DNA from: Candidatus Saccharimonadota bacterium
Lineage (GTDB): Bacteria > Patescibacteriota > Patescibacteriia > 2-12-FULL-60-25
NCBI GenBank assembly: GCA_016699205.1
Contig: CP064964.1
Location: 30,001-62,000, forward strand
DNA length: 32,000 bases
Direction of reading: 5' to 3'
In this document: piece by piece, positions 1,300 through 27,046 of the stretch
How positions within the stretch are numbered: the first letter of the stretch is position 1
Layout of the letters: each line of letters opens with the position of its first letter
Notes under the pieces: generated by a model
Databases searched by the model: none
Told to the model about the DNA's origin: nothing
Seen by the model: only the letters and a program-made list of their open reading frames with translations
Made by a program: the position numbers and the translations under genes

Positions 1300-2334
1300 A
1301 TGGAGATACAGGCTTTTAAGAAGCGGTTTGATCCGGTTTTGGAGCAGTTGCTCAAGAAAATCTTAGGTTCTTATCAAGGTCTGACAAAGGATGTCTTTAT
1401 CAGAGAGACGATCGATTATAGCCGCGAGCTTTTAATGGCTGGCGGCAAACGCGTTCGACCTTATATGGCATGGCTTACCTATAAGGCTTCTGGTGGACGC
1501 GATGATAAGCGTGTGCTTGAAGTTTTTGCCGGGCTAGAATTGTTTCACGCTTTTGCGCTTGTCCATGATGACATCATGGACCATGGAACCGAACGACATG
1601 GCATCAAAACGGCGCATCAGCACATTGCTTCACGTTTGAAGCAACTGAAACGCCATGGCGACCATAAGCATTTCGGGGAGGCTCAAGCGATTTTAATTGG
1701 CGATTTGCTTTTTGCCTGGTCGGTTGGTCAGGTGGCAGGTACAAAGGGTTGGCCGGCATTCCAGATGATGATCGATGAGGTGATGGTTGGGCAGATGATC
1801 GATGTTGATGTGATGACGAGACGCTCTGTTGATGATGCATTGCTGGCGGATAAGATGCGTTTGAAAACGGCGAGCTATACGTTTGTCAGACCCATGCAGG
1901 TTGGTGCTGCGATTGCCGGAGCGAATGGAAAGACAGCGCGCTTTTGTGAAGCATACGGGCTGCCTCTCGGTACGGCATTTCAGATCCAGGATGATTTGCT
2001 CGATTTAACAACGCCATCGAGTAAGACTGGAAAGACCGCATTCTCTGATTTACGAGAGGGGAATCATACGGTATTTACGCAATTTATCCGTATGCGCGGT
2101 ACAGCAAAGCAGAAACGTGAGTTGGAGCTGATGGTTGGAGCGGAGCTGACGGAGAAGGACCGCCCTCGCGTGATGGCATTGTTTCTTGAATCGGGTGCGT
2201 TTGAGCATGGCATGGCGCTGATCGATGGATATTTTGAAGAGGCGCTTGATGCCGTTGATGCAGCGAAACTTAAGCCGGTTCATGCCAAGCCATTCCGCCA
2301 GCTTGTCGAGTATATTCGAGCTCGAGCCACTTGA
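1300..2334 (+). CDS. crtE: Polyprenyl (geranylgeranyl) diphosphate synthase
   Basis: First aspartate-rich motif LVHDDIMD and second motif FQIQDDLLD of trans-isoprenyl diphosphate synthases. It is the first gene of the carotenoid cluster. Confidence 0.9.
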   Translation: MEIQAFKKRFDPVLEQLLKKILGSYQGLTKDVFIRETIDYSRELLMAGGKRVRPYMAWLTYKASGGRDDKRVLEVFAGLELFHAFALVHDDIMDHGTERHGIKTAHQHIASRLKQLKRHGDHKHFGEAQAILIGDLLFAWSVGQVAGTKGWPAFQMMIDEVMVGQMIDVDVMTRRSVDDALLADKMRLKTASYTFVRPMQVGAAIAGANGKTARFCEAYGLPLGTAFQIQDDLLDLTTPSSKTGKTAFSDLREGNHTVFTQFIRMRGTAKQKRELELMVGAELTEKDRPRVMALFLESGAFEHGMALIDGYFEEALDAVDAAKLKPVHAKPFRQLVEYIRARAT

Positions 2335-3173: not shown

Positions 3174-4687
3174 AAAAAGCTGTGATTATCGGTTCCGGAT
3201 TTGGCGGATTGGGTACAGCCTGTTTCCTTGCCAAAGCCGGTTATGAGGTCGTCGTGTTTGAAAAAAATGAACAGCCGGGCGGAAGGGCATCGGTGTTTTC
3301 TGAGAAAGGGTACACGTTTGACATGGGACCGTCCTGGTACCTGATGCCGGATATTTTTGAGCATTTTTTTCAATTGATGGGAGAGCGTGTTGAGGACTAT
3401 CTCGACTTGAAAAAGCTTCAACCTTCTTACCGGATTTTTTTTAAGGATGAGAATCGCGTCGTGGATATTCATTCTGATTTGGAAAAAGATCTTCCGACAC
3501 TGGAAGCCTTAGAACCCGGCAGCACGCCGCAGGTCCGCGAATATTTGAAGCGCTCGGGGTATCAGTATGAAGTCGCTAAGAATCACTTCTTGTTCAAGAA
3601 TTACGATTCGATTCTGGATTTTTTCAATTGGAAAACGATGATCGAGGGTAGCCGTCTCTCGGTATTTACCAAGATGGATCGATATGTAAAGCGCTTCTTT
3701 AAAAGCGATGCTTTGCAAAAGATCATGCAATATACGCTGGTATTTCTTGGGAGCTCGCCCTATAACACCCCTGCGCTCTACAACATCATGAGCCACATCG
3801 ATTTTTCGATGGGTGTCTTTTATCCGCAGGGTGGCATCTACAAGATTGTCGAGGCTTTCGTTGCTATGGCAAAGAAAAATGGTGCAACGATCGAGATAGA
3901 GAAAGAAGTGAAGCGCATTCTTGTGGATCAAGGGAAAGCACATGGTGTGGAGCTCATGGATGGATCGGTTGTTCAAGCCGATCTCGTGATCTCAAATGCG
4001 GATATTGCTTTTACGGACATGGTTTTGACACCGGAAGGATCGCGAATGCATGACGACACGTATTGGAAATCGCGTACGCTCGCACCGTCTGCGTTTATTA
4101 TGTATTTGGGCGTTGATGGACGTATTCCTGAATTAACGCATCATAATCTTATTTTCTCAAAAAATTGGGAAAAGAATTTTGCAGAGATTTTTGATCGTCC
4201 GCAGTGGCCGAGCGATCCATCGCTCTATGTTTGCGCGCCATCTGTTACGGATCCGAGCGTTGCTCCCTCCGGAAAGGAAAACCTTTTTGTTTTGGTTCCG
4301 ATCGCATCCGGGCTTGAATACACTCAAGGGCAATTGGAGCAGTACGGCGACAAAATTCTCGGCATGATGGAATCAGAGATGAAGATTCCAAATTTACAAA
4401 AGCGCATTGAGTACAAAAAATTTTTTAGCGTGAAAGATTTTGGCGAGCGCTATCATAGCTTGGGAGGTTCGGCGCTAGGACTTGCTCACACGATGGGACA
4501 GACGGCGATTTTTAGGCCAAATAATATTAATCGCAAGGTTGAGAATCTTTTGTATGTTGGAGCTGGAACCAATCCGGGTATCGGAATGCCGATTTGCTTG
4601 GTTTCGGCCGAGCTGGCTTATAAGCGTATCGTTGGTGATTCGAGCGATGGACCATTAGCCGGCGTAATTCAACGCGAAGAGAAATAA
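3170..4687 (+). CDS. crtI: Phytoene desaturase family FAD-dependent oxidoreductase
   Basis: N-terminal dinucleotide-binding motif KKAVIIGSGFGGLGTACFLAKAGYEVVVFEKNEQPGGRA. The 505-aa length is typical of the CrtI family. An ATGA overlap with the crtB stop suggests translational coupling. Confidence 0.9.
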   Translation: MKKAVIIGSGFGGLGTACFLAKAGYEVVVFEKNEQPGGRASVFSEKGYTFDMGPSWYLMPDIFEHFFQLMGERVEDYLDLKKLQPSYRIFFKDENRVVDIHSDLEKDLPTLEALEPGSTPQVREYLKRSGYQYEVAKNHFLFKNYDSILDFFNWKTMIEGSRLSVFTKMDRYVKRFFKSDALQKIMQYTLVFLGSSPYNTPALYNIMSHIDFSMGVFYPQGGIYKIVEAFVAMAKKNGATIEIEKEVKRILVDQGKAHGVELMDGSVVQADLVISNADIAFTDMVLTPEGSRMHDDTYWKSRTLAPSAFIMYLGVDGRIPELTHHNLIFSKNWEKNFAEIFDRPQWPSDPSLYVCAPSVTDPSVAPSGKENLFVLVPIASGLEYTQGQLEQYGDKILGMMESEMKIPNLQKRIEYKKFFSVKDFGERYHSLGGSALGLAHTMGQTAIFRPNNINRKVENLLYVGAGTNPGIGMPICLVSAELAYKRIVGDSSDGPLAGVIQREEK

Positions 4688-5545
4688 GATGAAGCCGGCG
4701 AGCGCGTTGATGCGCGGGAACCATGTATAGTATTTAAAGAGAGCTTCATCGGAGCGGGCTTGTAATGAACGTGCCATTAATGCGACGTAGATCGTGCCAA
4801 GAACATAGGCTAGCCAGCCAAGGCTTTGGATCGTGAGAAGTGCTGAGGAAGCGTAGAGACAAAGACAGAGCCAGAGGGTTCGGTTTCTTCCCAGAAATGT
4901 TGCGATCGTGCGCAGATTAGCGCCGCGGTCCGCATGGATGTCTGGTACCGCAGAGTAGGCGTGCATGGCCATGCACCATAAGCCTGCTGCGATCACGAGG
5001 GGAATTTGAACGTTCGTTGGATCGTTATAGATGAGGAAGCCAAAGAGGCCTGGAAGCAGGTACAGAATATTGAAGGCGCTATCAAAAAAGGGAATGGCTT
5101 TGGCGCGGATCGGGGGAGCGGAATAGAATATTCCAAAAAACAAAAACCCAGCCAAAGCGAGGAAGGATGCAGGCCATAAGACACCTGCCATGATTGCCGG
5201 AATCAAGAAAGGAAGATTTGTGATCGCGATGATTGTCCAGAGCTGTTGTCGATTGGCAGGACGGAGCGTCGTTTCATATCCTTCCTTTTTCTTGTTCAGG
5301 ATATCGGTTTGATAGTCAAAAATATCGTTCACTCCGTAAATAAGCAGGTTGGCAGGGAGTGTGAAATAGAGGGCAAATATGCCAAGCGGGGCTACGGAAA
5401 CGATAAGCGTACCAGGACTAATGCTCGTGATAAGCGATGGAATTGACTGCAGAAAACCGTTGGCAGCTAGACCAGTCAAAAACGGACCTAAGAGATAGAT
5501 CCAGAATCTTGGTCGGCTGATTTTGAGAAAGGTCTTTGCTTCCAT
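4655..5545 (-). CDS. UbiA-family prenyltransferase, lycopene-elongase (LyeJ/CrtEb)-like by context
   Basis: Polytopic membrane protein with the UbiA aspartate-rich motif YGVNDIFDYQTD and the N-terminal SRPRFWIYLLGPFLTG. It is embedded in the crt cluster. Its 3' end overlaps crtI by 33 nt in convergent orientation. Confidence 0.75.
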   Translation of the reverse strand: MEAKTFLKISRPRFWIYLLGPFLTGLAANGFLQSIPSLITSISPGTLIVSVAPLGIFALYFTLPANLLIYGVNDIFDYQTDILNKKKEGYETTLRPANRQQLWTIIAITNLPFLIPAIMAGVLWPASFLALAGFLFFGIFYSAPPIRAKAIPFFDSAFNILYLLPGLFGFLIYNDPTNVQIPLVIAAGLWCMAMHAYSAVPDIHADRGANLRTIATFLGRNRTLWLCLCLYASSALLTIQSLGWLAYVLGTIYVALMARSLQARSDEALFKYYTWFPRINALAGFILFLFALNYAG

Positions 5546-5578
5546 AAAGTCGATAACGGTATACTAGCCTAGTCTTGT

Positions 5579-6295
5579 ATGAACGGAAACGTTTTCTTTG
5601 GATCCGGAATTGCGGCAGCGGGAGGAATTGGTTTCTTGGCAGCTCAGCAAGGATTCGGATCCGTTCATCCGATGGTTTCCGTTGTAGCGATTCTTTTGAT
5701 TTCTTTACCAAGTTTTCATGGGTTGATTAGAACTGTTGGTTGGAGAAAGGGTCTTGCTGCCTTATCGGGCTTGGGTGTTTTTGCATTGTTGGTTGAGGCA
5801 TTGGGAACGTGGAGCGGATTTCCATACGGTGCATTCCAATATACGGGGGATCTTGGTTGGAGGGTTTTTGGGCTTGTGCCTTGGACGGTTCCTTTTGCGT
5901 GGATTCCACTTTTGCTTGGAGCGGTTACTATAGCGGGAGCCCGTTTCAGCGGTTCCGTTCAACGCGGGATCTATGCAGCTGTTTTGTTGACGGCGATGGA
6001 TTTTGTGCTGGACCCGGGTGCCGTCTCTGTCGGTCTATGGCGTTACTCAAATCCGGGACTTTATTACGAGGTACCATGGACAAATTTCGCGGGCTGGATG
6101 TTGACCGGGACCTTTGCTGCGATTTGTTTGTCGAAGTTGTTGAACGGAAAGCATCTTCCTTCCGGCATTCTTGTGAGCGCGGCTTGGATGGTGGCATTTT
6201 GGACGGGTGTTGCCGGAGCGCGTTTGCTCGTTTTGCCGCTACTGATCGGCGGCGTGCTTTTGGGTTACATCGTTTATCGGAAGAGTCGATCTTGA
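5579..6295 (+). CDS. Carotenoid biosynthesis membrane protein (Pfam Caroten_synth / CruF-type carotenoid hydratase-like)
   Basis: Multi-TM 238-aa protein with GFPYGAFQYTGDLG, FVLDPGAVSVGLWRY and YEVPWTNFAGW. These match my recollection of conserved blocks of the CruF/DUF422 family. It is divergent from the prenyltransferase across a 33-nt spacer. Confidence 0.65.
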   Translation: MNGNVFFGSGIAAAGGIGFLAAQQGFGSVHPMVSVVAILLISLPSFHGLIRTVGWRKGLAALSGLGVFALLVEALGTWSGFPYGAFQYTGDLGWRVFGLVPWTVPFAWIPLLLGAVTIAGARFSGSVQRGIYAAVLLTAMDFVLDPGAVSVGLWRYSNPGLYYEVPWTNFAGWMLTGTFAAICLSKLLNGKHLPSGILVSAAWMVAFWTGVAGARLLVLPLLIGGVLLGYIVYRKSRS

Positions 6296-6325
6296 CGCAT
6301 AATATAATCTTTGTTATTAATAGCC

Positions 6326-6350
6326 CCCTCTGGAGACAGAGGGTCTTTTT
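6326..6350 (+). terminator. Intrinsic terminator after the CruF-like gene
   Basis: Stem ccctctg / cagaggg with a GAGA loop, followed by tcttttt. Confidence 0.65.
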
Positions 6351-6405
6351 GTCCACTGATGGTCAGAAGATCATGTTCCTGCACAATTGAAGAGAGAGGT
6401 CCTTA

Positions 6406-8469
6406 ATGGACATCGTCAGCGCTCGTTCCGGTTCCATCCAGCAGATCAACAAGCACGGTATCCTCCTCGAGATCGGCGTGAAGCCGGAGAAGAAGATGGG
6501 CGACCGGCACCTGATGCTCGTCATCGACTGCTCGGGCTCCATGAGCTCGGTCATCGACGACGTGCGCAAGGACACGGAGAAGTTCGTCGCCGAGCTCGGC
6601 AAGGACGACTTCGCCTCCGTGATCATCTTCAGCGGCCACGGCCGCGCGAAGGCGATCGCGGGACCGACGCGCTGCGACGAGAAGGGTCGGAAGATGGTCA
6701 TCAAGGCCATCAAGGAGGAGGTCCGCATCCTCGACACGACGGTCTTCTCCGAGCCGCTCGAGCTCGCGCTCAAGACGATCCAGAAGGTCGCCAACGACGC
6801 GGACAACATCGCGATCCTCTTCACGGACGGCTGCGCTGTGCCCACCAAGTGGGACGTGAAGAAGGAGCAGACCAAGGCCGAGACGGCCGCCAAGGCGATC
6901 GCCGACGCGGGCGCCGGTCTCTCGGTGATCGGCTACGGCAACTGGTACGACGCGAAGTTCCTCGCGTCGCTCATGAGCGAGTCGGGCCAGAACGGCCTGT
7001 ATCGCCACGTGAGCGAGATCGAGGACTTCAGCGCGGTGCTGAACGGGATCCGCGACACCTTCGAGAAGACGGTGCGCGGCTCGGTCGACGTGGCCTTCAA
7101 GCCCAACGCGGGCGAGATCACGGGCTTCGTGCGCGTGACCCCGCAGGTGAGCCTCATCAAGGGGAGTCACCTCACGTCCAGCGCGTTCTTCGAGGGCAAG
7201 GCGACGCTCTTCCTCGAGACGACGAAGAGCGTGAAGTCGATCAAGATCGACGGGCGCGTGAACGGCAAGACGTTCAGCAAGGAGATCACGCTCGACGAGA
7301 TGAAGGAGGCCGACAAGGCCTCGTTCATCCGCGCGTACGCCGCACAGGCGGTGCTCTCCGGGCAGAACGCGACGGCCGCCGAGTACCTCGAGATCACCGG
7401 CGACGCCGGGCTCGCGGAGAAGGTGGGCAACGCCTTCACCGACCGCGAGGCCCGCGAGACGCAGGACACGATGCGGCGCGTCTTCACCGACGGCAAGCGC
7501 TTCATCGGCACCGGCCTCAAGGCCGTGGGTCCGAACCACTCGATCCTGAACGTGCTCCGCCTCCTCATCGAGGACAAGGGTTCGGTCCTGTACATCCCCA
7601 AAGGCGCCTACAAGCGCGGCGGGGAGCTGCAGACCGATCCGGCGGTGCTCCAGGGCAACGGCGATCGCACGCTCGAGGTGCTCGACCTCATCAGCAACGA
7701 CGAGCGCTTCAACTTCTCGCTGCGCACGATCAAGGACGTGAAGGTCCTGCCGCGCAACGAGAAGGGTGAGATCATCGAGAGCGCCAAGCCGGAGGACAAG
7801 AAGGTCTTCCGGACCTACAACGTCATCCGTGACGGCAACCTCGTGCTCCCCGAGCTCGAGGCGCGTCTCTCGGAGGCGTCGTTCACCCAGCTCGTCGAGG
7901 CGGGCGTCATCAAGGCCGGTACCAAGTACGAGGCCGCGAAGACGTACAGCCTCGACCTGCGGAGCCTCAAGATGATCAGCCCGGCGTGGGCCAAGCCCGC
8001 GACGCTCGGTCTCGTCGGCCTCATGCGTCACGAGGCGGATCTCGAGGAGCAGCAGAAGGCGCTGAACGCGCGCAAGAAGGCGATCGTCGCGGGCGGCTTC
8101 ACGCCCCTCGTCGACACCGACTCGCAGTTCTACCGCGAGCAGGCCAAGAAGGACGAGGAGCGCGAGAGCGACACCTACCAGGCGACGACCGTCGAGTACC
8201 GGATGATGGGCTACAAGCCCAAGTCCTACGACGCGTCCAAGCTCAACTGGGAGGAGGCGGACCAGCTCGTCAAGGAGACCCGCCGCGAGCTCTCGATCGC
8301 GCGCTTCAAGATCCGGGCCACCGTCTTCGCGATGGAGCGGTGCAACCAGACGTCGATCAAGTGGGGCAACCCCAAGACGACGGCCAAGGGCACCGAGGAG
8401 CGGCTCGCCGACTTCGACGGCGCCAAGCTCAAGCGCGCCGCGCGGGTGCAGACCTTCGTCTGCAGCTGA
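6406..8469 (+). CDS. von Willebrand factor A (vWA) domain protein with a complete MIDAS motif and a ~470-aa unassigned C-terminal region
   Basis: HLMLVIDCSGSMSS (DxSxS), ILDTTVF (Thr) and AILFTDGCA (Asp). ATG start with gagagagg 6 nt upstream. It is the only one of five overlapping ORFs here with protein-like composition. Two counted 60-nt lines are 63% and 65% GC. Confidence 0.85.
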   Translation: MDIVSARSGSIQQINKHGILLEIGVKPEKKMGDRHLMLVIDCSGSMSSVIDDVRKDTEKFVAELGKDDFASVIIFSGHGRAKAIAGPTRCDEKGRKMVIKAIKEEVRILDTTVFSEPLELALKTIQKVANDADNIAILFTDGCAVPTKWDVKKEQTKAETAAKAIADAGAGLSVIGYGNWYDAKFLASLMSESGQNGLYRHVSEIEDFSAVLNGIRDTFEKTVRGSVDVAFKPNAGEITGFVRVTPQVSLIKGSHLTSSAFFEGKATLFLETTKSVKSIKIDGRVNGKTFSKEITLDEMKEADKASFIRAYAAQAVLSGQNATAAEYLEITGDAGLAEKVGNAFTDREARETQDTMRRVFTDGKRFIGTGLKAVGPNHSILNVLRLLIEDKGSVLYIPKGAYKRGGELQTDPAVLQGNGDRTLEVLDLISNDERFNFSLRTIKDVKVLPRNEKGEIIESAKPEDKKVFRTYNVIRDGNLVLPELEARLSEASFTQLVEAGVIKAGTKYEAAKTYSLDLRSLKMISPAWAKPATLGLVGLMRHEADLEEQQKALNARKKAIVAGGFTPLVDTDSQFYREQAKKDEERESDTYQATTVEYRMMGYKPKSYDASKLNWEEADQLVKETRRELSIARFKIRATVFAMERCNQTSIKWGNPKTTAKGTEERLADFDGAKLKRAARVQTFVCS

Positions 8470-8488
8470 CCTCTCTCCGACACTCTGT

Positions 8489-8526
8489 GGGGCCCGGTCG
8501 ACATCTGTCGATCGGGCCCCTTCGTT
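8489..8526 (+). terminator. Strong GC-rich hairpin terminator after the vWA gene
   Basis: 14-bp stem ggggcccggtcgac / gtcgatcgggcccc (one G.U pair) with loop atct, followed by ttcgtt. Confidence 0.65.
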
Positions 8527-8532
8527 ATCCTC

Positions 8533-8560
8533 TTGATTTTTGGCTAGGATTTAGTATTAT
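8533..8560 (+). promoter_or_regulatory. Sigma-70-type promoter for tRNA-Lys
   Basis: TTGATT, a 16-nt spacer, then TATTAT. The -10 box ends 14 nt upstream of the mature tRNA 5' end. Confidence 0.5.
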
Positions 8561-8574
8561 TCTGTCACTTTAAT

Positions 8575-8650
8575 GGGACTGTAGCTCAGCTGGTAGAGCA
8601 GTGGCCTTTTAAGCCAACGGTCGCGGGTTCAATCCCCGCCGGTCCCACCA
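8575..8650 (+). tRNA. tRNA-Lys (anticodon UUU), CCA encoded
   Basis: Manual cloverleaf: acceptor gggactg/cggtccc, D arm gctc-agctggta-gagc, anticodon arm gtggc-CTTTTAA-gccaa, T arm gcggg-ttcaatc-cccgc, discriminator A, CCA. Confidence 0.93.
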
Positions 8651-8653
8651 TTG

Positions 8654-8681
8654 AAAAACACTCGCAAGACGAGTGTTTTTT
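8654..8681 (+). terminator. Intrinsic terminator after tRNA-Lys
   Basis: Stem acactcg / cgagtgt with a 5-nt loop, flanked by an upstream A-run and the downstream tttttt. Confidence 0.7.
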
Positions 8682-8685
8682 CGTT

Positions 8686-9816
8686 ATGCTAGCGACATTC
8701 ATGCGCGTCCACATGATTGGTGCCAAAGGCATTCCGTCCGACTCTGTCCCAGGAGCCGGCGGTGTTGAGCGACATGTGGAACAAATAGCGACGCGTTTGG
8801 CGGAGCACGGCCATCGCGTCAGTGTTTATATCCGTAAGTATTCGGATTATAAAAAACATACATGGAATAGCGTACGCCTGATTCGCATCCCTTCCTTTCG
8901 ATCCAAAAATTTGGATACGATTTCTCACGTTTTTTTATCGACCTTGCATGTGTTGTTTCAGGAGACCGATATCATCCACTATCATGGCGTCGGACCATCG
9001 ACGATGGCGTGGATTCCTCGCGTCTTCAAGCCAAAGGTAAAAGTTGTTTGTACATTTCACAGTCGTGATTGGTTTGATTCCAAATGGGGTTGGTTCGCAA
9101 AGAGTTATTTGAAATTTGGCGAATGGGCAGCGGTGCATTTTCCGCATCGCACGATCGTGATCTCGCACACGCTGCAGGTTTGGTGCAGAAATAAATGGAA
9201 GAAGCAGACGGATTATATTCCGAATGGTGCCGATCTTCTTGGACCGCAGGGCGCATCGGAGCTGCAGCGTTTTGGATTGGTGCCAGGCCAATATTTTTTG
9301 GGCGTTGGCCGATTGGTTCCTAATAAAGCATATGAAGTGGCGATTGAAGCGTATCGTCACGTGAAGAGCGATTTTCCTTTGGTGATTGTTGGTGAGTCAT
9401 TCCACTCGACCGAGTATGATCATCGGCTTCGGAATTTAGCCGAGCGCGATTTACGCGTGCGTCTGATCGGTTATCAGAGCGGGACGGTGCTGCGTCAGCT
9501 ATTTGCTAATTGCTATGCGTTTATTCATCCATCGCGAGCAGAAGGTTTGTCGGTGACGATTATCGAGGCGATGGCGGCAGGCAAGGTTGTTATCATGTCC
9601 GATATTAAGGAGAACCTCGAGCTGATCGATCACAGCGGTATTTCCTTCAAGACCGATGATCGGGATGAGCTAAAGACGGCAATCGAGCTTGTTTTGGAAG
9701 ATCCGGTAATGGTTGAGGAGCGTGGTAAGCGCGGCCGAGAAATGGTGAAGAAAGAGTATTCTTGGGCAAGGGTCGTCGACAAATTGGAGAAATTGTATAA
9801 GGATGTGCGACAATGA
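8686..9816 (+). CDS. Family 4 (GT-B) glycosyltransferase
   Basis: C-terminal GT4 E-x7-E region: FIHPSRAEGLSVTIIEAMAAGKVVIMSD. The N-terminus has GGVERHVEQIATRLAEHGHRV. The ATG at 8701 (MRVHMIGAKG) is an alternative start. Confidence 0.85.
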   Translation: MLATFMRVHMIGAKGIPSDSVPGAGGVERHVEQIATRLAEHGHRVSVYIRKYSDYKKHTWNSVRLIRIPSFRSKNLDTISHVFLSTLHVLFQETDIIHYHGVGPSTMAWIPRVFKPKVKVVCTFHSRDWFDSKWGWFAKSYLKFGEWAAVHFPHRTIVISHTLQVWCRNKWKKQTDYIPNGADLLGPQGASELQRFGLVPGQYFLGVGRLVPNKAYEVAIEAYRHVKSDFPLVIVGESFHSTEYDHRLRNLAERDLRVRLIGYQSGTVLRQLFANCYAFIHPSRAEGLSVTIIEAMAAGKVVIMSDIKENLELIDHSGISFKTDDRDELKTAIELVLEDPVMVEERGKRGREMVKKEYSWARVVDKLEKLYKDVRQ

Positions 9817-16612: not shown

Positions 16613-16936
16613 ATGAAAGAAATCAAGGGATGGAGATGGTTTAAGTGCGTCACTGTTGGTTTGCTAGGTTCTATTATCTACCATACTCTTGCGGCGGTGT
16701 TTATATTACTCACTCCGCTAGTGAGTATATTGATGGTTTTACCTGGTTTGTTATTCGCTAGTGTTCTCACGGCTATCTATTTGGCTATAGTTGATTCTTC
16801 GAGATGGTGGTTGTTTCCAGATTTCATTCCGGTGCTCTTGTGTAATTTTCTATTTGTTTGGTTTGTTATCGCAATATTGTTTGATTGGAAACAGAAAAAA
16901 GGCTTGACAAGGTTTGGGAAAAAGGGAACGGAGTAG
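16613..16936 (+). CDS. Small integral membrane protein, 107 aa, unknown function
   Basis: Three hydrophobic spans (VTVGLLGSIIYHTLAAVFILL, LMVLPGLLFASVLTAIYLAIV, FIPVLLCNFLFVWFVIAILF) and a basic C-terminal tail. No family recognised. Confidence 0.55.
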   Translation: MKEIKGWRWFKCVTVGLLGSIIYHTLAAVFILLTPLVSILMVLPGLLFASVLTAIYLAIVDSSRWWLFPDFIPVLLCNFLFVWFVIAILFDWKQKKGLTRFGKKGTE

Positions 16937-16939
16937 AGG

Positions 16940-17290
16940 GTGGCATTACATAACCCGCTTTGGCAGAATCACTTGCGAGCTAGCCTGCGAAGAAATCAGA
17001 CTCAAGCAGAGCACAAGCTCTGGTATTATGTTTCTCGAAGCCAGCTAGGTACTAAGATTCGTCGTCAGCATGGGATCGGGCAGTATATTGCGGACTTTTA
17101 CTGTCGTAATGCGAAGCTGGTAATAGAAATAGACGGAAGCGTTCATCTTCAGCCGGATGTTCAAAAGCGAGATTATGAGAAAGAGGTGTTTTTTAATTCT
17201 CTTGGCTTGACTGTCTTGAGGTTTACGAATCAGGAAATTTTGTGCAATATTGAGATGGTTTTAGCCAAGATCCGCAGCACACTCCCGTAG
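16940..17290 (+). CDS. DUF559 endonuclease-like domain protein (Vsr/restriction-endonuclease fold)
   Basis: EHKLWYYV, RRQHGIGQYIADFYCRNAKLVIEIDGSVH and VLRFTNQEI fit the DUF559 pattern. GTG start. Confidence 0.8.
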   Translation: MALHNPLWQNHLRASLRRNQTQAEHKLWYYVSRSQLGTKIRRQHGIGQYIADFYCRNAKLVIEIDGSVHLQPDVQKRDYEKEVFFNSLGLTVLRFTNQEILCNIEMVLAKIRSTLP

Positions 17291-17435: not shown

Positions 17436-19520
17436 ATGCTCAACAAATTCATCCTCAAATCAAACTACGAACCCTCGGGTGATCAGCCAGAGGCTATTAA
17501 GCAATTGATTGATGGCGTGAAGAAAGGGTATCGATTCCAGACGCTGCTTGGTGCTACGGGTACGGGTAAGACATTTACGATTGCAAACGTTGTCGAGAGT
17601 ATTCAGAAGCCGACCCTCGTCATCGCACACAATAAAACGTTGGCGGCGCAGTTGTGTAATGAGTTCCGACATTTTTTTCCGGATAATGCCGTAGAGTATT
17701 TTGTTTCGTATTACGACTACTATCAGCCGGAGGCGTATATCGCGCGATCTGATACATATATCGAGAAGGAAGCGACGATTAACCAGGAGATTGATCGATT
17801 GCGACACAATGCGACGCAAGCGTTGATTACGCGTAAAGATGTTTTGATTGTGGCGACCGTGTCTTGTATTTATGGTCTTGGTGCACCGGAGGCGTATGAG
17901 AATACGGTTCTGCGCGTAAAACTTGGCGATGATGTTTCGCGTGAAGGGACGTTGAATCGATTGATTGAGATGCAGTTTACGCGTACGTCGGCGGATTTGT
18001 TGCGTGGAACGTTTCGATCGAGAGGTGAAGTATTGGAGGTGATGCCGGCCAACGAGGAAGTTGTTTATCGTATTGAAGCGCCGCGTGGAATTGTGTCGCG
18101 TATCGAGAAGATTGATCCGCTTACCAAGAAAGTCTTGCGCGAGCAGGAAGATATTTGGGTGTTTCCGGCGAAACATTTTATTACGGTTGGAGAAGAGCGT
18201 ACGCGTGCGATCGAGACGATTCGGAAGGAATTGAAAGAGCGTTTGGAATGGTTTGAGAAAAAGGGATTGTTGCTGGAGGCGGAGCGATTGGAGCGTAAAA
18301 CCAAATACGATTTGGAAATGATGGAGACGCTCGGTTATTGCAATGGTATTGAAAATTATTCGCAACCTTTGAGCGGCCGACCGCCGGGTGAGGCGCCGGA
18401 TACGCTTTTTTCCTATTTCCCGGAGGATTATTTGCTTGTGATCGATGAGTCGCACGTCACAACGACGCAGCTTGGTGGAATGTATGAGGGTGATAAGTCG
18501 CGTAAACAATCGCTGATTGAGCATGGATTCCGATTGCCGAGTGCGGCGGATAATCGACCTTTGCGATTTACGGAATTGGAGAAAAAGATGAAGCAGGTGA
18601 TTTTTGTTTCAGCGACGCCGGCGAAATACGAGTTGGAGCATAGCGCACAGATTGTCGAGCAGATTATCCGTCCGACGGGTCTTGTTGATCCGGAGATTAT
18701 CGTGATGCCGATTACGCCGGATAAGAAGGGATATAAAGGTCAGGTTGAGGATTTGCTTACCAATCGCATGCCGGAGGTTATTGCGCGTAAGGAGCGTGTC
18801 TTGGTGACGACATTGACCAAGAAGATGGCAGAAGATTTAACCGAGTTCATGAAAGAACGTGGGTTTAAGGTACGCTACATTCATAGCGATATCGAGACGA
18901 TCGAACGTTTGGAGATTTTGTCGGAGTTTCGAAAGGGAACGTATGACGTCATCATTGGTGTGAACTTGCTGCGTGAAGGTTTGGATCTTCCGGAAGTTTC
19001 GCTGGTGGCGATTATGGATGCGGACAAGGAAGGTTTCTTGCGATCGGAGACGTCGTTGATTCAGACGATTGGTCGTGCGGCGCGTAACGTGAAAGGACAA
19101 GTGTTGCTTTATGCCGATGAGATTACGGGTTCGATGGAACGTGCGATGAAAGAAACGGAACGTCGTCGTGTGAAACAGCTTGCGTATAACAAGTTGCATG
19201 GGATTACGCCAAAGACGATTATCAAGGCGCAAGAAGATTTGCGATTGATGTTGGGATTGGCGGTGACGGAAAAGGATGTGAAGGAGATTTTGAAGCTGGA
19301 ACTTTCAGGAGAGACTCATGATTTGGGAACGGTTTTGAAGAAGAAGGAGTCGGAGATGAAGGAGGCTGCGAAGAATTTGGAATTTGAGCTTGCGGCGATT
19401 TTGCGTGATGAGGTGATGCAGCTTGAAAAAGAAATTAGAAAGCGATCAAAGACTTCGGCTTTGCCGGATAAGGAGAAGAAGAAAGTGGAGAAGAGGGTGA
19501 GACATGGGAGGACGAGGTGA
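17436..19520 (+). CDS. uvrB: Excinuclease ABC subunit B
   Basis: Walker A GATGTGKTFT, DESH box (VIDESHVT), helicase motifs, and the C-terminal UVR coiled coil LEFELAAILRDEVMQLEKE. Confidence 0.95.
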   Translation: MLNKFILKSNYEPSGDQPEAIKQLIDGVKKGYRFQTLLGATGTGKTFTIANVVESIQKPTLVIAHNKTLAAQLCNEFRHFFPDNAVEYFVSYYDYYQPEAYIARSDTYIEKEATINQEIDRLRHNATQALITRKDVLIVATVSCIYGLGAPEAYENTVLRVKLGDDVSREGTLNRLIEMQFTRTSADLLRGTFRSRGEVLEVMPANEEVVYRIEAPRGIVSRIEKIDPLTKKVLREQEDIWVFPAKHFITVGEERTRAIETIRKELKERLEWFEKKGLLLEAERLERKTKYDLEMMETLGYCNGIENYSQPLSGRPPGEAPDTLFSYFPEDYLLVIDESHVTTTQLGGMYEGDKSRKQSLIEHGFRLPSAADNRPLRFTELEKKMKQVIFVSATPAKYELEHSAQIVEQIIRPTGLVDPEIIVMPITPDKKGYKGQVEDLLTNRMPEVIARKERVLVTTLTKKMAEDLTEFMKERGFKVRYIHSDIETIERLEILSEFRKGTYDVIIGVNLLREGLDLPEVSLVAIMDADKEGFLRSETSLIQTIGRAARNVKGQVLLYADEITGSMERAMKETERRRVKQLAYNKLHGITPKTIIKAQEDLRLMLGLAVTEKDVKEILKLELSGETHDLGTVLKKKESEMKEAAKNLEFELAAILRDEVMQLEKEIRKRSKTSALPDKEKKKVEKRVRHGRTR

Positions 19521-19521
19521 T

Positions 19522-20757
19522 ATGAAGAAAGCTATTTTTAGTGCGTTTGCCGTATTCCAGGATGCTAAAGACGGTCTTGAGAAGGAGAAAGTATTTAAAA
19601 AAGCTTTTATGCTGGAACGTGAACTCACGACAGCGGAGCAAGGAGTAATCAAGAATGAAATCCTGAAAGAACTTCAAGACATTTCTTTAACGAAGGGTTC
19701 GTCAATAACAAATACTTATTCTTCGTATTCGTTTGTAGATAAGGTTGAGAAACCATTTTTTGGCGATTGTCTTGTCCAAGTCAGGCTGCCGTATTGTCTG
19801 TACCTGCCTCAAAACTTTTCTTACAAGGCGGTTACAAAGAATGGCGTAAAAGCACGACTTGTCCTGAATAAACAATGGACATTGCACGCTAAGGAGTCGA
19901 GCGTGGCCGATTTATATACAGAGGGCTCCTCGACTTTTTTTAAGAATTCGCAAGTTATTACGCCGCGGTATCCGTTAGCACTTGAGGCTGGATGGGATCC
20001 GCCGTCCAATGTCAAGAATTCTGAGAAACTAGAAGATGAAAGTGGTGTTTATAGATATTCGAGAATTTCGATAATGTTAGAAACAAATGTTCGTAATGAG
20101 GAGGAAATCGACAAGGAGTTATCAAATTTTCACAAGAAGCTCCATGGTGATTGCTTGGATATTGTAAATCGGTTTTTAGATATTTACAGATATGTGGCGA
20201 ATAGATCCTATATTGGACGGCTCAATACTCTTTCGATTGATAATGTCTATTTTTTTTCAATAAACTCAGGTTATTATCCGATGCCACTCAATATCGGTAC
20301 TGCTGAGATGAATCTCCCTGAGGAACAAATTGAAAAAATTCATGATCTTGCTGAAGCGGGTACAGAGCCGCCGTTACATGCATTACTAGCGCTTCAAGCG
20401 CTAGGTTCTATGAAGAGCGGTGCGAATCTTTTAGCTGTCGTCGAGTCTTTCAAAGCGCTTGATGTTTTTATAGAAGAGTTTTTATACGCGAGATTAAGTT
20501 CACAAGGTTCTGCTGTCCAAGATTTTGAAGCTAAGCTAGAGAATGCTTACAATACAAAAGATAGACTCAAGGATCTGCTCAAAGAGGTGACCGGCAAGAC
20601 TGTGCATGAGATTGATAATGAACTTTGGAGTGAGTGGCTGGCAGTTTATAAGGATCGGAATAAGTCGATTCATGCGAGGCTCCAACCAGACTTGAAGATG
20701 ACGGAGAAAATTTTGGATTTGAATCAAAAAATGATTGATATCATCAGTACTTTTTAG
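19522..20757 (+). CDS. HEPN-domain protein (putative RNase) with an unassigned ~300-aa N-terminal region
   Basis: C-terminal WLAVYKDRNKSIHARL is R-N-x3-H, the Rx4-6H HEPN motif with the typical Asn after Arg. It is preceded by helical segments (HALLALQALGSMKSGANLLAVVESFKALDVFIEEFLY). The ATG at 19522 has a GAGG 4 nt upstream. The alternative ATG at 19504 overlaps the end of uvrB. Two counted lines are 28% and 30% GC. Confidence 0.65.
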   Translation: MKKAIFSAFAVFQDAKDGLEKEKVFKKAFMLERELTTAEQGVIKNEILKELQDISLTKGSSITNTYSSYSFVDKVEKPFFGDCLVQVRLPYCLYLPQNFSYKAVTKNGVKARLVLNKQWTLHAKESSVADLYTEGSSTFFKNSQVITPRYPLALEAGWDPPSNVKNSEKLEDESGVYRYSRISIMLETNVRNEEEIDKELSNFHKKLHGDCLDIVNRFLDIYRYVANRSYIGRLNTLSIDNVYFFSINSGYYPMPLNIGTAEMNLPEEQIEKIHDLAEAGTEPPLHALLALQALGSMKSGANLLAVVESFKALDVFIEEFLYARLSSQGSAVQDFEAKLENAYNTKDRLKDLLKEVTGKTVHEIDNELWSEWLAVYKDRNKSIHARLQPDLKMTEKILDLNQKMIDIISTF

Positions 20758-20809
20758 CGATGCGTCTGCTTTGAAACTTGCTAAGCGAGCATTTCTAAAT
20801 GCTAACAAT

Positions 20810-21007
20810 ATGTCCGAACATATCGTTTCTATTTTCTACACCAATTACCGCGGCGAAACAGCCGAGCGTAAAATAATTCCAAAAAAGATTTGGTTTGGAG
20901 CGACGGAATGGCATCCGGAGGAGCAATGGTTGCTTGAGGCTTTGGATGTAGCGAAGAATGAGGATCGGCATTTTGCGATGAAAGACATTAAAAGCTGGAG
21001 CGTATAA
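20810..21007 (+). CDS. Small stand-alone WYL-like domain protein (~65 aa)
   Basis: IVSIFYTNYRGETAERKIIPKKIWFGATEWHPEEQWLLEALDVAKNEDRHFAMKDIKSW fits the WYL pattern Y..(x)..R.i.P..i....W.L.A.D....R.F...dI. No HTH is present. There is no clear SD before the ATG at 20810. The alternative TTG at 20735 overlaps the HEPN gene by 23 nt. Confidence 0.55.
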   Translation: MSEHIVSIFYTNYRGETAERKIIPKKIWFGATEWHPEEQWLLEALDVAKNEDRHFAMKDIKSWSV

Positions 21008-21012
21008 CAAAT

Positions 21013-21042
21013 AAGGCCTCCCTAGAAGCGGGAGGCCTTTTT
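21013..21042. terminator. Bidirectional intrinsic terminator
   Basis: 10-bp stem aaggcctccc / gggaggcctt with a 7-nt loop. The flanks are aaat upstream and ttt downstream. It lies between the WYL-like ORF (+) and the membrane-protein ORF (-). Confidence 0.7.
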
Positions 21043-21410
21043 CAGTCTTTCTTTGCGCGATCCTTCAAACGCTCGACCGACCACGTGAGCCAGCACATAT
21101 GGATGAACTGGGCTTTGGTGTAGGTCGAGGCGAAGAGGATCACGAGAAAGGGCAAAGCATTGATGATTCTGACCCACTCACCCGTTATCAGCATTTGACC
21201 TGCGGTCGCGAGGATTGCGACGTCGAGGAACAGGGCAAAAGGGGTGATGAACAGCCAGGCAAGGCAGAAACTGCGCAGGCCTTCTGGCTTGTTGTCTTTG
21301 TGCGTCCAAGCCCACTTGGGATCGTCCCACTTGAGGAGTTTCCAGGAGTTGAAGATGATGGCAACTTGCAGGTAGATGTAGAAACCGATCAAACAACAGA
21401 CAAAGTCCAT
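21042..21410 (-). CDS. Small integral membrane protein, 122 aa, unknown function
   Basis: Hydrophobic spans (FVCCLIGFYIYLQVAIIF, FCLAWLFITPFALFLDVAILATAG, IINALPFLVILFAS). A counted line is 57% GC. No family recognised. Confidence 0.55.
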   Translation of the reverse strand: MDFVCCLIGFYIYLQVAIIFNSWKLLKWDDPKWAWTHKDNKPEGLRSFCLAWLFITPFALFLDVAILATAGQMLITGEWVRIINALPFLVILFASTYTKAQFIHMCWLTWSVERLKDRAKKD

Positions 21411-25896: not shown

Positions 25897-26174
25897 AATT
25901 TTGGAGGTGTCTTGAAGCCCAGGAGACTACGAATCTTTCGTCGCTGGCTCAGATCGAGCACTTTTGCGATCGGTGTTTTCAGCCTATTTTTCCCGGCCAG
26001 ATTTAGAGGCGACATCTCTGGACATCACGAGGCCGTCTCCTGATTCTTAAGAATCGTAGAGCTCTCGAGTATCGATCCTCCGGAAGACGAGGGGACGGGA
26101 AGAAGAGGTTGGGATGAGGGTCTCTGGCGCCTGAACTGAAGAGCGCTCCGTCAGCTTGGACGGGGGCTTCTGAA

Positions 26175-26996
26175 TTATCGCGCAGTACGAGTGGCGGCGA
26201 TGAAGCGGCTGATGTATTCGCCGGCGGTGTTGCCGTCGGAGAAGGGGAGAATGGTGCTCGGTTCTGGTTCCGTGAAGAACGAGAAGGAGAGCCGCTCGCC
26301 AGATCGATACATCACGCGGTGACGCAGGCCGCCGACGCGATTGGGGTCCTTGGGTCCACCAGTCCAGTAGCGCAGCATGCCGCCGGCGATGAGGACGATG
26401 TCTCCGGCAGGATTCACGAGCTCAGCCCAAGAGCCTGCCTGGTCGATCTGAAGCCCGGGCTCTGCGCCGCCAACGAAGACGGTGACGAGCGAGAAATCCC
26501 GATGGGCGGGGAAAAGAATGTCGTCTGGCGGAGCGAGTGCGGCCGGGTAGTGCGTGGCTCGTAGACCATGCGAGCCTTTCAGCATGGCGGTGTAGAGTCC
26601 GCGACCTTGCGGTCCCAAGCCGTTTTCCATCCAGAAGAATACGTCGGCCATGACGAGAGATAGCTCGTGCGTCATGGCCTGCATCTTGCGGACGAGTTTC
26701 TCCGAGTGGAGACAGGTTTTCCGATCGGATTCGCGATCGAGGTGGACGTCCCAGAATTGCCGGCCGTAGTCGGCGCGGTTGCCGGCGACGCCCTCGATGC
26801 CGGTGGGCGTGAAGCCGGAACGCTCTCTGCCGCGATAGGCTCGCGGGTTGATCGCTCCGATATCGTGAAAGACACGGTAGGCCTCGTCGCGAATGGCGGA
26901 GACCTTTTCCGGGTCGATGACGTCGGGAATCCGCAAGAAGCCGGTTCTACGGAATTCCTGCCAAACCATGGGCTGTGCAAGACGTGCCAAGTCCAT
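26175..26996 (-). CDS. 2-oxoglutarate/Fe(II)-dependent oxygenase (isopenicillin-N-synthase-like family)
   Basis: Facial triad and 2OG site: FPAHRDFS (HxD), GGLRHRV (distal His), RLSFSFF (RxS). I prefer the ATG at 26996, which has GGAGG 6 nt upstream. The track start at 27044 would abut the ABC-F stop. A counted line is 65% GC. Confidence 0.8.
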   Translation of the reverse strand: MDLARLAQPMVWQEFRRTGFLRIPDVIDPEKVSAIRDEAYRVFHDIGAINPRAYRGRERSGFTPTGIEGVAGNRADYGRQFWDVHLDRESDRKTCLHSEKLVRKMQAMTHELSLVMADVFFWMENGLGPQGRGLYTAMLKGSHGLRATHYPAALAPPDDILFPAHRDFSLVTVFVGGAEPGLQIDQAGSWAELVNPAGDIVLIAGGMLRYWTGGPKDPNRVGGLRHRVMYRSGERLSFSFFTEPEPSTILPFSDGNTAGEYISRFIAATRTAR

Positions 26997-27046
26997 TAGC
27001 AACCTCCGCAGCAGGCATCTTGAGGGAAATAGCCGGCTTGTCAATC

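Follow-up and report, generated by a model that had tools for sequence, protein, structure and literature searches.

Gene content and composition of the uvrB locus

The subject of this analysis is a gene, designated ORF-A, situated immediately downstream of uvrB in a 32,000-nucleotide (nt) stretch of contig CP064964.1 (positions 30,001 to 62,000; this whole stretch is termed the window). The source is the ~1.08 Mb genome of a member of Candidatus Uhrbacteria (candidate phyla radiation, CPR/Patescibacteria). ORF-A is predicted to encode a single-chain ribonuclease (RNase) of the HEPN type, and is followed by a short gene for a protein composed of a WYL domain alone (mini-WYL) and by a hairpin terminator. 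An earlier interpretation, made from the nucleotide sequence without database searches (the sequence-only reading), had proposed that ORF-A and the mini-WYL gene constitute an acquired two-component module in which the WYL protein gates the RNase. The features and their coordinates are collected in Table 1. Identical proteins at NCBI are QQR60897.1 for UvrB, QQR60902.1 for RpoD and QQR60898.1 (411 amino acids, aa) for ORF-A.

Two start codons are available to ORF-A. The ATG at 19504, which gives a protein of 417 aa and overlaps the uvrB stop codon, falls within a stretch of the uvrB coding region in which relatives are identical at every base. The ATG at 19522, which gives 411 aa, lies one base past the uvrB TGA, is preceded by a Shine–Dalgarno-like GGGAGG/GAGG in the last uvrB codons that serves whichever gene comes next, and is the start used in the NCBI annotation. 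The latter is likely the true start; residue numbers below refer to the 417-aa form. The sequence-only reading was thus correct in placing a real ORF at or across the uvrB stop and, given the 1-nt distance, in expecting that ORF-A is probably co-transcribed with uvrB. When counted mechanically from TTG 20735, the mini-WYL ORF is 90 aa in length. uvrB, ORF-A and mini-WYL are placed in one transcription unit that ends at a common hairpin. This hairpin, rightly described beforehand as a bidirectional terminator, is shared with the convergent 122-aa gene and is identical in sequence across four related genomes.

The G+C content of ORF-A is 39.7% (39% at third codon positions, GC3), as compared with 47.7% (GC3 55%) for uvrB and 49.7% for dnaG. 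Since the mini-WYL gene, at 43.9% (GC3 50%), is near the host composition, the signal of foreign composition belongs to ORF-A only and not to the pair. The low-G+C 60-nt lines on which the sequence-only reading had relied do exist (27–32%), but the flanks, which it had put at 42–45%, are at ~48–50%. Similarly, its description of an acquired cassette holds for ORF-A, which is compositionally foreign, but not for mini-WYL.

Table 1. Features of the window and of the loci compared with it. Loci other than the window are designated by L numbers, with positions counted within each locus; X is the content of the slot between uvrB and mini-WYL, and UvrB percentages are identities to the window protein.
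Locus	Feature	Positions	Strand	Remarks
Window	uvrB	17436..19520	+	694 aa; conserved left flank of variable slot; from ORF list and UvrB Pfam domains in syntenic loci
Window	ORF-A	19522..20757	+	Predicted single-chain HEPN RNase; strain-specific cargo gene
Window	N-terminal beta-rich domain of ORF-A	19504..20298	+	Residues 1-265; AlphaFold2 (AF2) model
Window	C-terminal helical HEPN domain of ORF-A	20320..20748	+	Residues 273-415; Foldseek and homologue profile matches
Window	Rx4H motif R385-N-K-S-I-H390	20656..20673	+	R385, 20656-20658; H390, 20671-20673; read from sequence
Window	Spacer, 52 nt	20758..20809	+	Homology to related genomes restarts at 3' end; DNA alignment
Window	mini-WYL gene	20810..21007	+	ATG; 65 aa, WYL domain alone; right flank of slot
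Window	GC-rich hairpin terminator	21013..21039	.	10-bp stem, -19.5 kcal/mol, z -2.9; T-rich both sides
Window	Convergent gene, 122-aa hydrophobic protein	21042..21410	-	Conserved neighbour; 96.7% identical in L004
Window	Slot	19521-~20880		UvrB reference; X = HEPN protein ORF-A
L004	Slot	5423-6000		UvrB 99.6%; X = 186-aa protein with two transmembrane segments (two-TM)
L130	Slot			UvrB 96.7%; X = same 186-aa two-TM protein as L004
L005-L007	Slot	5421-6000 (L005)		UvrB 98.3%; X = unrelated 187-aa secreted protein
L008/L009	Slot	5457-6000 (L008)		UvrB 94.2%; X = glyoxalase/bleomycin-resistance-like protein, 131 aa
L127/L128	Slot	3528-5000 (L127)		UvrB 99.3% (L127; L128 lacks the uvrB end); X = 235-, 120- and 134-aa genes, last glyoxalase-like
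L131	Slot	1312-1794		UvrB 89.9%; X = 143-aa protein
L005	DHO_dh-like + amidohydrolase pair	7117-9119		Absent from window and L004
L008	DHO_dh-like + amidohydrolase pair	6296-8322		
L127	DHO_dh-like + amidohydrolase pair	5700-7702		
L011, L021, L022, L027-L029, L031, L033, L037, L039, L040, L051, L055, L058, L061, L063, L064, L066, L068, L069, L074, L081; also L023	mini-WYL followed by dCTP-deaminase-like gene	~5001-5190 in most; next gene from ~5190		Both genes on same strand
L125	Phage mini-WYL	3450-3677		Salmonella phage SE131
L126	Phage mini-WYL	3462-3683		Escherichia phage BP9

A hypervariable slot between uvrB and the mini-WYL gene

It is apparent from Table 1 that close relatives keep the arrangement Dus...uvrB-[X]-miniWYL-terminator...dnaG-rpoD, with X varying. 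At least six unrelated contents were found in the slot among genomes with UvrB proteins 90–99.6% identical, and ORF-A has no homology to the other slot cargos. The DNA homology of the window to L004, L005 and L008 breaks exactly at the uvrB stop codon and restarts just before the WYL start codon. In the comparison with L004, the uvrB DNA is 96% identical, and within the WYL gene an identity of 64–76% over the first 66 nt contrasts with 94–100% in the 3' half; the first ~70–100 nt of the gene are far more diverged than the remainder. The right recombination junction therefore falls within the WYL gene, in its 5' part, and exchange of the slot has evidently proceeded through homologous recombination in which uvrB and the WYL gene served as arms. 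A search of the slot borders for direct or inverted repeats that might represent att sites or target-site duplications gave short chance matches only. Because uvrB, mini-WYL and the terminator are fixed while the content between them differs, ORF-A is considered to be low-G+C strain-specific cargo. A glyoxalase/bleomycin-resistance-like gene is situated right before WYL in two lineages, and may represent an older state of the slot.

One other slot cargo was considered as a HEPN candidate. The 235-aa helical protein of L127 (3531-4238) contains REEVAH (Rx4H) near residue 174, but was rejected, as hhalign against the ORF-A family gave a probability of 0.08; the motif may be a chance occurrence.

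The dus-uvrB interval is likewise variable (16613-17290 in the window, 2084-3330 in L005 and 1601-3199 in L008). In the window it is occupied by an ORF for a 107-aa membrane protein and, at 16940-17290, by a gene of the endonuclease-like DUF559 type, and in L005 by four different small genes. A DUF559 gene was also observed near the ORF-A homologue in L093. Between mini-WYL and dnaG, a pair of genes for pyrimidine-type enzymes (DHO_dh-like and amidohydrolase) shows a presence/absence polymorphism; in L008 the pair begins ~100 nt past mini-WYL.

The ORF-A protein family and its HEPN domain

A word-indexed protein search with ORF-A returned one non-self homologue, which is 34% identical, and a repetition with a 35-sequence profile gave almost no additional homologues. 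An exhaustive HMMER search of representative clusters with a two-sequence profile was needed to reveal the family, which comprises ~341 representative clusters at E≤1e-3, of which 51 were found at E≤1e-30. Its members are mostly 400–460 aa in length and align end to end. Thirty-five aligned homologues are 21–36% identical to ORF-A, and no closer relative was seen outside its own species; a 99.8% identical copy is present in one other assembly. ORF-A itself has no usable match in Pfam, NCBIfam, PADLOC or PHROGs, and the family is an uncharacterised, single-gene one that is covered by no curated family among Pfam, NCBIfam and PADLOC. No ORF-A homologue was found on mobile elements, whether in viral contigs searched with the family alignment or, by tblastn, in 72,556 plasmids and 50,697 phage records.

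The motif VYKDRNKSIHARL, which contains R385 and H390, is present near the ORF-A C terminus, and both residues are invariant across the 35 homologues. The AF2 model, built with the 35-sequence alignment, has a mean predicted local distance difference test score (pLDDT) of 90.3 and a predicted TM-score of 0.79, with beta-strands up to residue 265, followed by a helical domain (273–415). The best Foldseek match in the PDB was 2q00 (probability 1.00, TM-score over the target, TMt, 0.66), and the others were 2hsb (probability 0.85, TMt 0.58) and 1o3u. These minimal HEPN proteins were the only PDB matches of ORF-A above noise. Among the 35 homologues, Pfam HEPN_Apea was weakly matched by 11 (best E 1.5e-4) and Pfam HEPN by six; given the weak best E values, these matches probably do not reach the gathering cut-offs. 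Fifteen of the 35 matched the PADLOC Csx1/Csm6 model (best E 1.5e-7). In ten homologues examined singly, all Csx1/Csm6 or CARF_HEPN matches were confined to the C-terminal (HEPN-side) portion of the profile, at positions ~200–335 of 357 (Csx1/Csm6) and ~317–438 of 482 (CARF_HEPN), and aligned to residues ~265–420. These results make it very likely that the ORF-A C terminus is a HEPN domain, as the sequence-only reading had deduced from its R and H residues, and the model gives high confidence that the C-terminal ~145 residues form a HEPN helical bundle.

The first ~300 aa, which the same reading had called beta-rich, are modelled as such. Invariant residues of this part in the 35-member alignment are P102, K123, T126, P157, R184, Y228 and N270. 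The domain gave no meaningful Foldseek match in the PDB or BFVD, its PDB matches being low-TM noise (e.g. coronavirus receptor-binding domains), and a PDB sequence-profile search with the ORF-A family returned 0 matches. Since distant relatives (300–380 aa) have in common only profile positions ~175–430, the extreme N terminus is suggested to be the variable part. The N-terminal domain is a candidate sensor or regulatory domain.

It is conceivable that the HEPN-like domain is a non-catalytic scaffold for binding of a ligand or protein, or that the gene is a functionless, decaying passenger. Both the lack of a significant profile match for ORF-A itself and its low identity to homologues beyond its own species would be in keeping with this. 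However, the ORF is full length, with all of the family-invariant residues intact, including R385 and H390; a nearly identical copy exists in a second assembly; and the invariance of the catalytic dyad over 35 diverged sequences argues for catalysis. This explanation is accordingly considered very unlikely.

The mini-WYL protein

The Pfam WYL profile (PF13280) gave a sub-threshold score with mini-WYL (14.8 bits against a cut-off of 21.8; E 0.029). The PADLOC WYL match was at 5.7e-5 and that to phrog_3715 at 6.9e-24, and several close homologues carry a precomputed PF13280 match. The family comprises >150 homologous clusters of 62–75 aa and 60–92% identity, with the consensus YTNYRGET..R.I.P.KIWFG.TEWHPEEQWLLDA.D..K...R.FAMKDI. 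The AF2 model (pLDDT 93.4) gave WYL proteins as its top 28 Foldseek matches (BrxR, PafBC, DriD and CapW, as well as the CRISPR-Cas-related 6oaw), at TM-scores over the query (TMq) of 0.62–0.75 and a probability of 1.00. The WYL domain fills the entire 65-aa protein, and therefore no helix–turn–helix (HTH) and no WCX domain are present. Among close relatives the ratio of nonsynonymous to synonymous polymorphism (pN/pS) is 0.06–0.10, indicative of strong purifying selection. As modelled, mini-WYL is a genuine stand-alone WYL protein with an SH3-like beta-barrel fold. The sequence-only reading had thus recognised the domain and the absence of a DNA-binding region correctly.

The 80 GTDB genomes in which mini-WYL was found include members of Gammaproteobacteria, Streptomyces, Brucella, Planctomycetota, Saccharibacteria, Woesearchaeota and Methanosarcinales. 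Directly 3' of it, on the same strand, 23 of the 80 genomes, from at least 12 phyla, have a gene for a ~330–350-aa dCTP-deaminase-like (DCD-like) protein, which matches PF22769 DCD at 1e-31 to 1e-32 as well as the PHROG 'dCTP deaminase'. In 21 of the 23 cases the two genes are separated by -3 to 42 nt; two further apparent overlaps are probably due to over-extended ORF starts. A search of one literature collection found no paper joining 'WYL domain' with 'dCTP deaminase', and the pair seems to be undescribed.

The mini-WYL family also occurs in 400 phage records, which include rV5-like, phiEco32-like and 7-11-like phages, Rhizobium and Aeromonas jumbo phages and Bacillus CP-51, and its members there are annotated 'hypothetical' or 'YobV/YafY regulator' despite having no HTH. 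In BP9, the one rV5-like locus examined, the gene is situated between those for recombination endonuclease VII and the DNA polymerase exonuclease subunit; the protein that follows mini-WYL there was considered as a DCD-like partner and rejected, as it is the exonuclease subunit. The theme across these contexts (uvrB, the DCD-like gene and the BP9 phage genes) is DNA and nucleotide metabolism, and by analogy with other WYL domains mini-WYL probably binds ssDNA (single-stranded DNA) or a nucleotide. It is a resident gene of the lineage, very widely conserved, and not a dedicated partner of ORF-A.

Co-occurrence of ORF-A and mini-WYL

If the two proteins worked as a pair, their genes would be expected to travel together, and the sequence-only reading had itself named a lack of co-occurrence in other genomes as evidence against its module. 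The ORF-A side of the comparison consisted of 34 loci with family members, 31 of which came from a metagenome scan queried with 13 closer sequences. No mini-WYL was found by tblastn near the ORF-A homologues (0 of 34 loci), and no neighbour family was common to more than five of these loci; at the locus of the nearest homologue, only non-coding DNA and a terminator lie downstream. Conversely, neither an ORF-A homologue nor uvrB was found within 5 kb of mini-WYL in any of the 80 GTDB genomes. Linkage of mini-WYL to HEPN genes is seen nowhere outside this one lineage.

These data bear directly on the proposal of a dedicated module, in which mini-WYL would sense ssDNA or damage and gate the HEPN RNase in the manner of WYL1 with Cas13d. 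The two genes are adjacent, on the same strand, end at a common terminator and are probably co-transcribed with uvrB; both domain calls are correct; the WYL domains of DriD and CapW bind ssDNA, going by the titles of their structures; and the 5' part of the WYL gene was apparently transferred together with ORF-A. Set against this are the absence of co-occurrence from either side, the presence of the same mini-WYL and terminator after unrelated genes where UvrB is 90–99.6% identical, a GC3 value that is host-like for mini-WYL but not for ORF-A, and the identity of the recurrent mini-WYL partner, which is a DCD-like enzyme. The two-component module is therefore unsupported, as there is no co-occurrence in either direction and unrelated genes fill the same uvrB-X-WYL frame. 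The chance that it is correct is very small, and it can be said with considerable confidence that ORF-A and mini-WYL are not a pair.

The fixed position of mini-WYL suggests a related alternative, that of a constant sensor in the uvrB operon which modulates any cargo of the slot, the HEPN RNase included. Mini-WYL is always the final gene of the uvrB-X-WYL unit, whatever X may be, and HTH-WYL regulators such as BrxR and CapW adjoin diverse defence systems (PMC9122601). Mini-WYL, however, is without a DNA-binding domain, the cargos vary in kind and for the most part do not resemble effectors (two-TM, secreted and glyoxalase-like proteins), and in other phyla the surroundings of mini-WYL are fixed, being either housekeeping or DCD-like, and include no neighbour that varies. 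A constant sensor of this kind is judged improbable, if slightly less so than the dedicated module.

Neighbourhoods of ORF-A homologues

The 117 neighbour proteins encoded within 4 kb of the homologues include, on the basis of Pfam matches, four N6_N4 and one C5 DNA methylases, two ResIII proteins, RE_MamI and AbiEii, together with four resolvases and three recombinases; the remainder are varied housekeeping proteins. In L107 and L109 the ORF-A homologue is situated between a type III Mod-like methylase gene and that for an 897-aa protein, which is probably the ResIII match. The methylase (712–751 aa, EcoP15I-Mod-related) overlaps the following ORF-A homologue by 4 nt (L107 202-6309, L109 260-6484, L096 269-4324). 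In effect, the homologues of L107 and L109 are embedded in a type III restriction–modification (R-M)-like operon. These observations fit, but do not prove, the view that part of the ORF-A family is a mobile, defence-island-associated gene. No Cas families were present among the 25 commonest neighbour families, and among the listed neighbour families no nucleotidyltransferase partner was found, apart from one AbiEii in one locus.

Proposed role of ORF-A

Taken together, the data favour the view, to which a probability of roughly 0.6 is assigned, that ORF-A is a self-contained single-gene HEPN RNase, acquired as strain-specific cargo, which serves as a self-gated toxin or abortive-infection effector. 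It is rated as self-gated because the catalytic dyad is intact, the predicted fold is that of HEPN, the N-terminal domain is conserved and no partner is present, and because there is precedent among HEPN proteins. HEPN domains dimerise into a composite RNase site, and single-chain HEPN effectors are latent until activated by the binding of a ligand or nucleic acid to their non-catalytic domains, and they usually act on mRNA or on the anticodon loops of tRNA (Anantharaman et al. 2013, PMC3710099; bioRxiv 10.64898/2026.01.26.701840; bioRxiv 10.64898/2026.02.22.705581). By this precedent, ORF-A would be kept latent, like the single-chain effectors ApeA, DARNA and Csm6/Csx1, until its non-catalytic N-terminal domain sensed a cue of infection or stress. 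The HEPN domains would then pair to form a composite active site, and the paired domains would cleave cellular RNA (tRNA, mRNA or rRNA), so that growth would be arrested by ORF-A acting as a toxin or abortive-infection effector.

That the role is specifically anti-phage is a prospect that falls somewhat short of even. An active HEPN RNase could serve other ends, e.g. as the toxin of a selfish or addictive cassette, as a uvrB-linked regulator of growth under stress, or as a factor that an episymbiotic CPR cell directs at other bacteria or at its host. The position in the uvrB operon, the patchy distribution and recombinase neighbours, the other slot cargos, which are not defence genes, and the known occurrence of HEPN toxins in toxin–antitoxin and other conflict systems (PMC3710099) are all consistent with such a role. 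It is disfavoured by the absence of an antitoxin candidate or conserved neighbour in the 34 loci, by the N terminus of the model, where DSSP shows beta-strands and no signal-peptide-like segment (as read from the model, with no formal signal-peptide test), and by the R-M and Abi neighbours at some loci, which favour defence. A non-anti-phage function is thus unlikely, while carrying more weight than the other alternatives considered above.

Several points weigh against the self-gated effector as well. The Foldseek E values of the HEPN matches are weak (0.04–0.9) despite the high probabilities, and the ORF-A of the window itself matches no HEPN profile in Pfam, NCBIfam or PADLOC. Its RNase activity, toxicity, dimerisation and trigger are all inferred. 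The defence role would derive from family precedent and from a minority of neighbourhoods; most homologue contigs are short, and many neighbours are housekeeping genes. Nor is the slot a dedicated defence island, since no obvious defence function attaches to its membrane, secreted and glyoxalase-like cargos. Tight self-inhibition, which is assumed here, would be required of a toxic RNase that has no antitoxin and is co-transcribed with uvrB. In addition, exchange of ORF-A seems to have carried the 5' part of the WYL gene with it. The two genes would therefore have been neighbours in the donor as well, and a functional interaction between ORF-A and mini-WYL is formally conceivable in this lineage.

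A broader hypothesis is offered tentatively and must be regarded as rather doubtful. According to it, ORF-A would found an unrecognised single-gene HEPN immune-effector family (~340 clusters at 50% identity) with a new beta-rich sensor fold, active in ultra-small CPR genomes, and mini-WYL would, separately, be a small factor, universal to bacteria, archaea and virulent phages, that binds ssDNA or nucleotides and has the DCD-like enzyme as its core partner.

The analysis removes a tempting but false call of a new two-component defence system. In its place stands an unannotated HEPN family with a strongly conserved N-terminal domain, a candidate addition to the self-gated single-protein RNase effectors exemplified by ApeA and DARNA, for which the question is what the sensor domains recognise. 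The locus also shows cleanly, at a single site, how genes turn over between strains of a CPR bacterium with a ~1 Mb genome, and the conserved stand-alone WYL family of cells and phages could help to explain how a WYL domain that has no output domain reads ssDNA or nucleotide signals.

Other features of the window

Two patches of high G+C content were observed elsewhere in the window. A 2-kb stretch at 6400-8470 is 62–66% G+C in a genome of ~48–50%, codes for a protein of 687 aa that carries a VWA domain N-terminally, and stops ~100 nt ahead of a tRNA-Lys gene (8575-8650); it is either foreign DNA or a gene of unusual composition. A second patch (26000-27044, 60–62%) overlaps a 2OG-Fe(II) oxygenase gene on the minus strand (26175-27044).

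Comparison with known systems

As the sequence-only reading had remarked, no characterised system is known to have the architecture of this locus. A close counterpart of ORF-A in overall plan is ApeA (Gao et al. 2020; bioRxiv 10.64898/2026.01.26.701840), which is likewise one polypeptide with a C-terminal HEPN domain, non-catalytic N-terminal domains and no partner gene, and whose Pfam profile, HEPN_Apea, is weakly matched by some ORF-A homologues. ApeA is a latent tRNase that is activated via a pocket outside the active site (bioRxiv 10.64898/2026.01.26.701840). It differs in its length of ~580 aa, in having predominantly alpha-helical N and Mid domains and a split HEPN domain with insertions, and in forming decamers or dodecamers, whereas ORF-A is 411 aa in length with a beta-rich N-terminal domain and a minimal HEPN domain. 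The PADLOC ApeA model was not among the listed matches for ORF-A (E≤1) or for the 35 homologues (E≤0.1). The suggested kinship of the ORF-A N-terminal domain with ApeA was therefore not borne out; only the HEPN domain is held in common, and a beta-rich domain stands opposite an all-helical one.

DARNA (bioRxiv 10.64898/2026.02.22.705581) is also a single-gene HEPN protein with a second domain, and its HEPN domain is Csm6-like, as are the best PADLOC matches of the ORF-A homologues. It is a tRNase whose second domain senses ssDNA (bioRxiv 10.64898/2026.02.22.705581). In DARNA, however, the HEPN domain is N-terminal, the sensor is an alpha-helical Pds5-like repeat and the protein is a dodecamer. 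Csm6/Csx1 of type III CRISPR systems share with ORF-A the order of an N-terminal sensor followed by a C-terminal HEPN domain, but the CARF part of their models is unmatched by the ten ORF-A homologues examined, and the ORF-A N-terminal domain is beta-rich rather than Rossmann-like.

The minimal HEPN proteins or HepT toxins of HEPN-MNT modules (2q00, 2hsb and 1o3u) are the best structural matches of the C-terminal domain (TM-scores of 0.58–0.66 over the target) and likewise have the Rx4-6H motif. They are stand-alone domains of ~120–130 aa paired with an MNT (nucleotidyltransferase) antitoxin, whereas ORF-A has a 265-aa N-terminal extension. No adjacent MNT antitoxin was found: there is no conserved neighbour in the 34 loci, and the slot of the window holds ORF-A only.

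WYL1, BrxR, CapW, PafBC and DriD couple the sensing of ssDNA or damage with defence or repair; the RNase that WYL1 modulates is of the HEPN type. Mini-WYL shares the SH3-like WYL fold with WYL1 of the Cas13d system and with the other four proteins (TMq 0.70–0.75, probability 1.00), but differs from all of them in being a WYL domain alone, with no HTH or ribbon–helix–helix and no WCX dimerisation domain.

ORF-A thus resembles ApeA, DARNA or Csm6 in its predicted mode of working, and is a member of none of these groups. What is new here is a single-gene HEPN effector, of a known kind, that combines the HEPN domain with a new N-terminal domain and resides, next to an unrelated mini-WYL gene, in a strain-variable slot.

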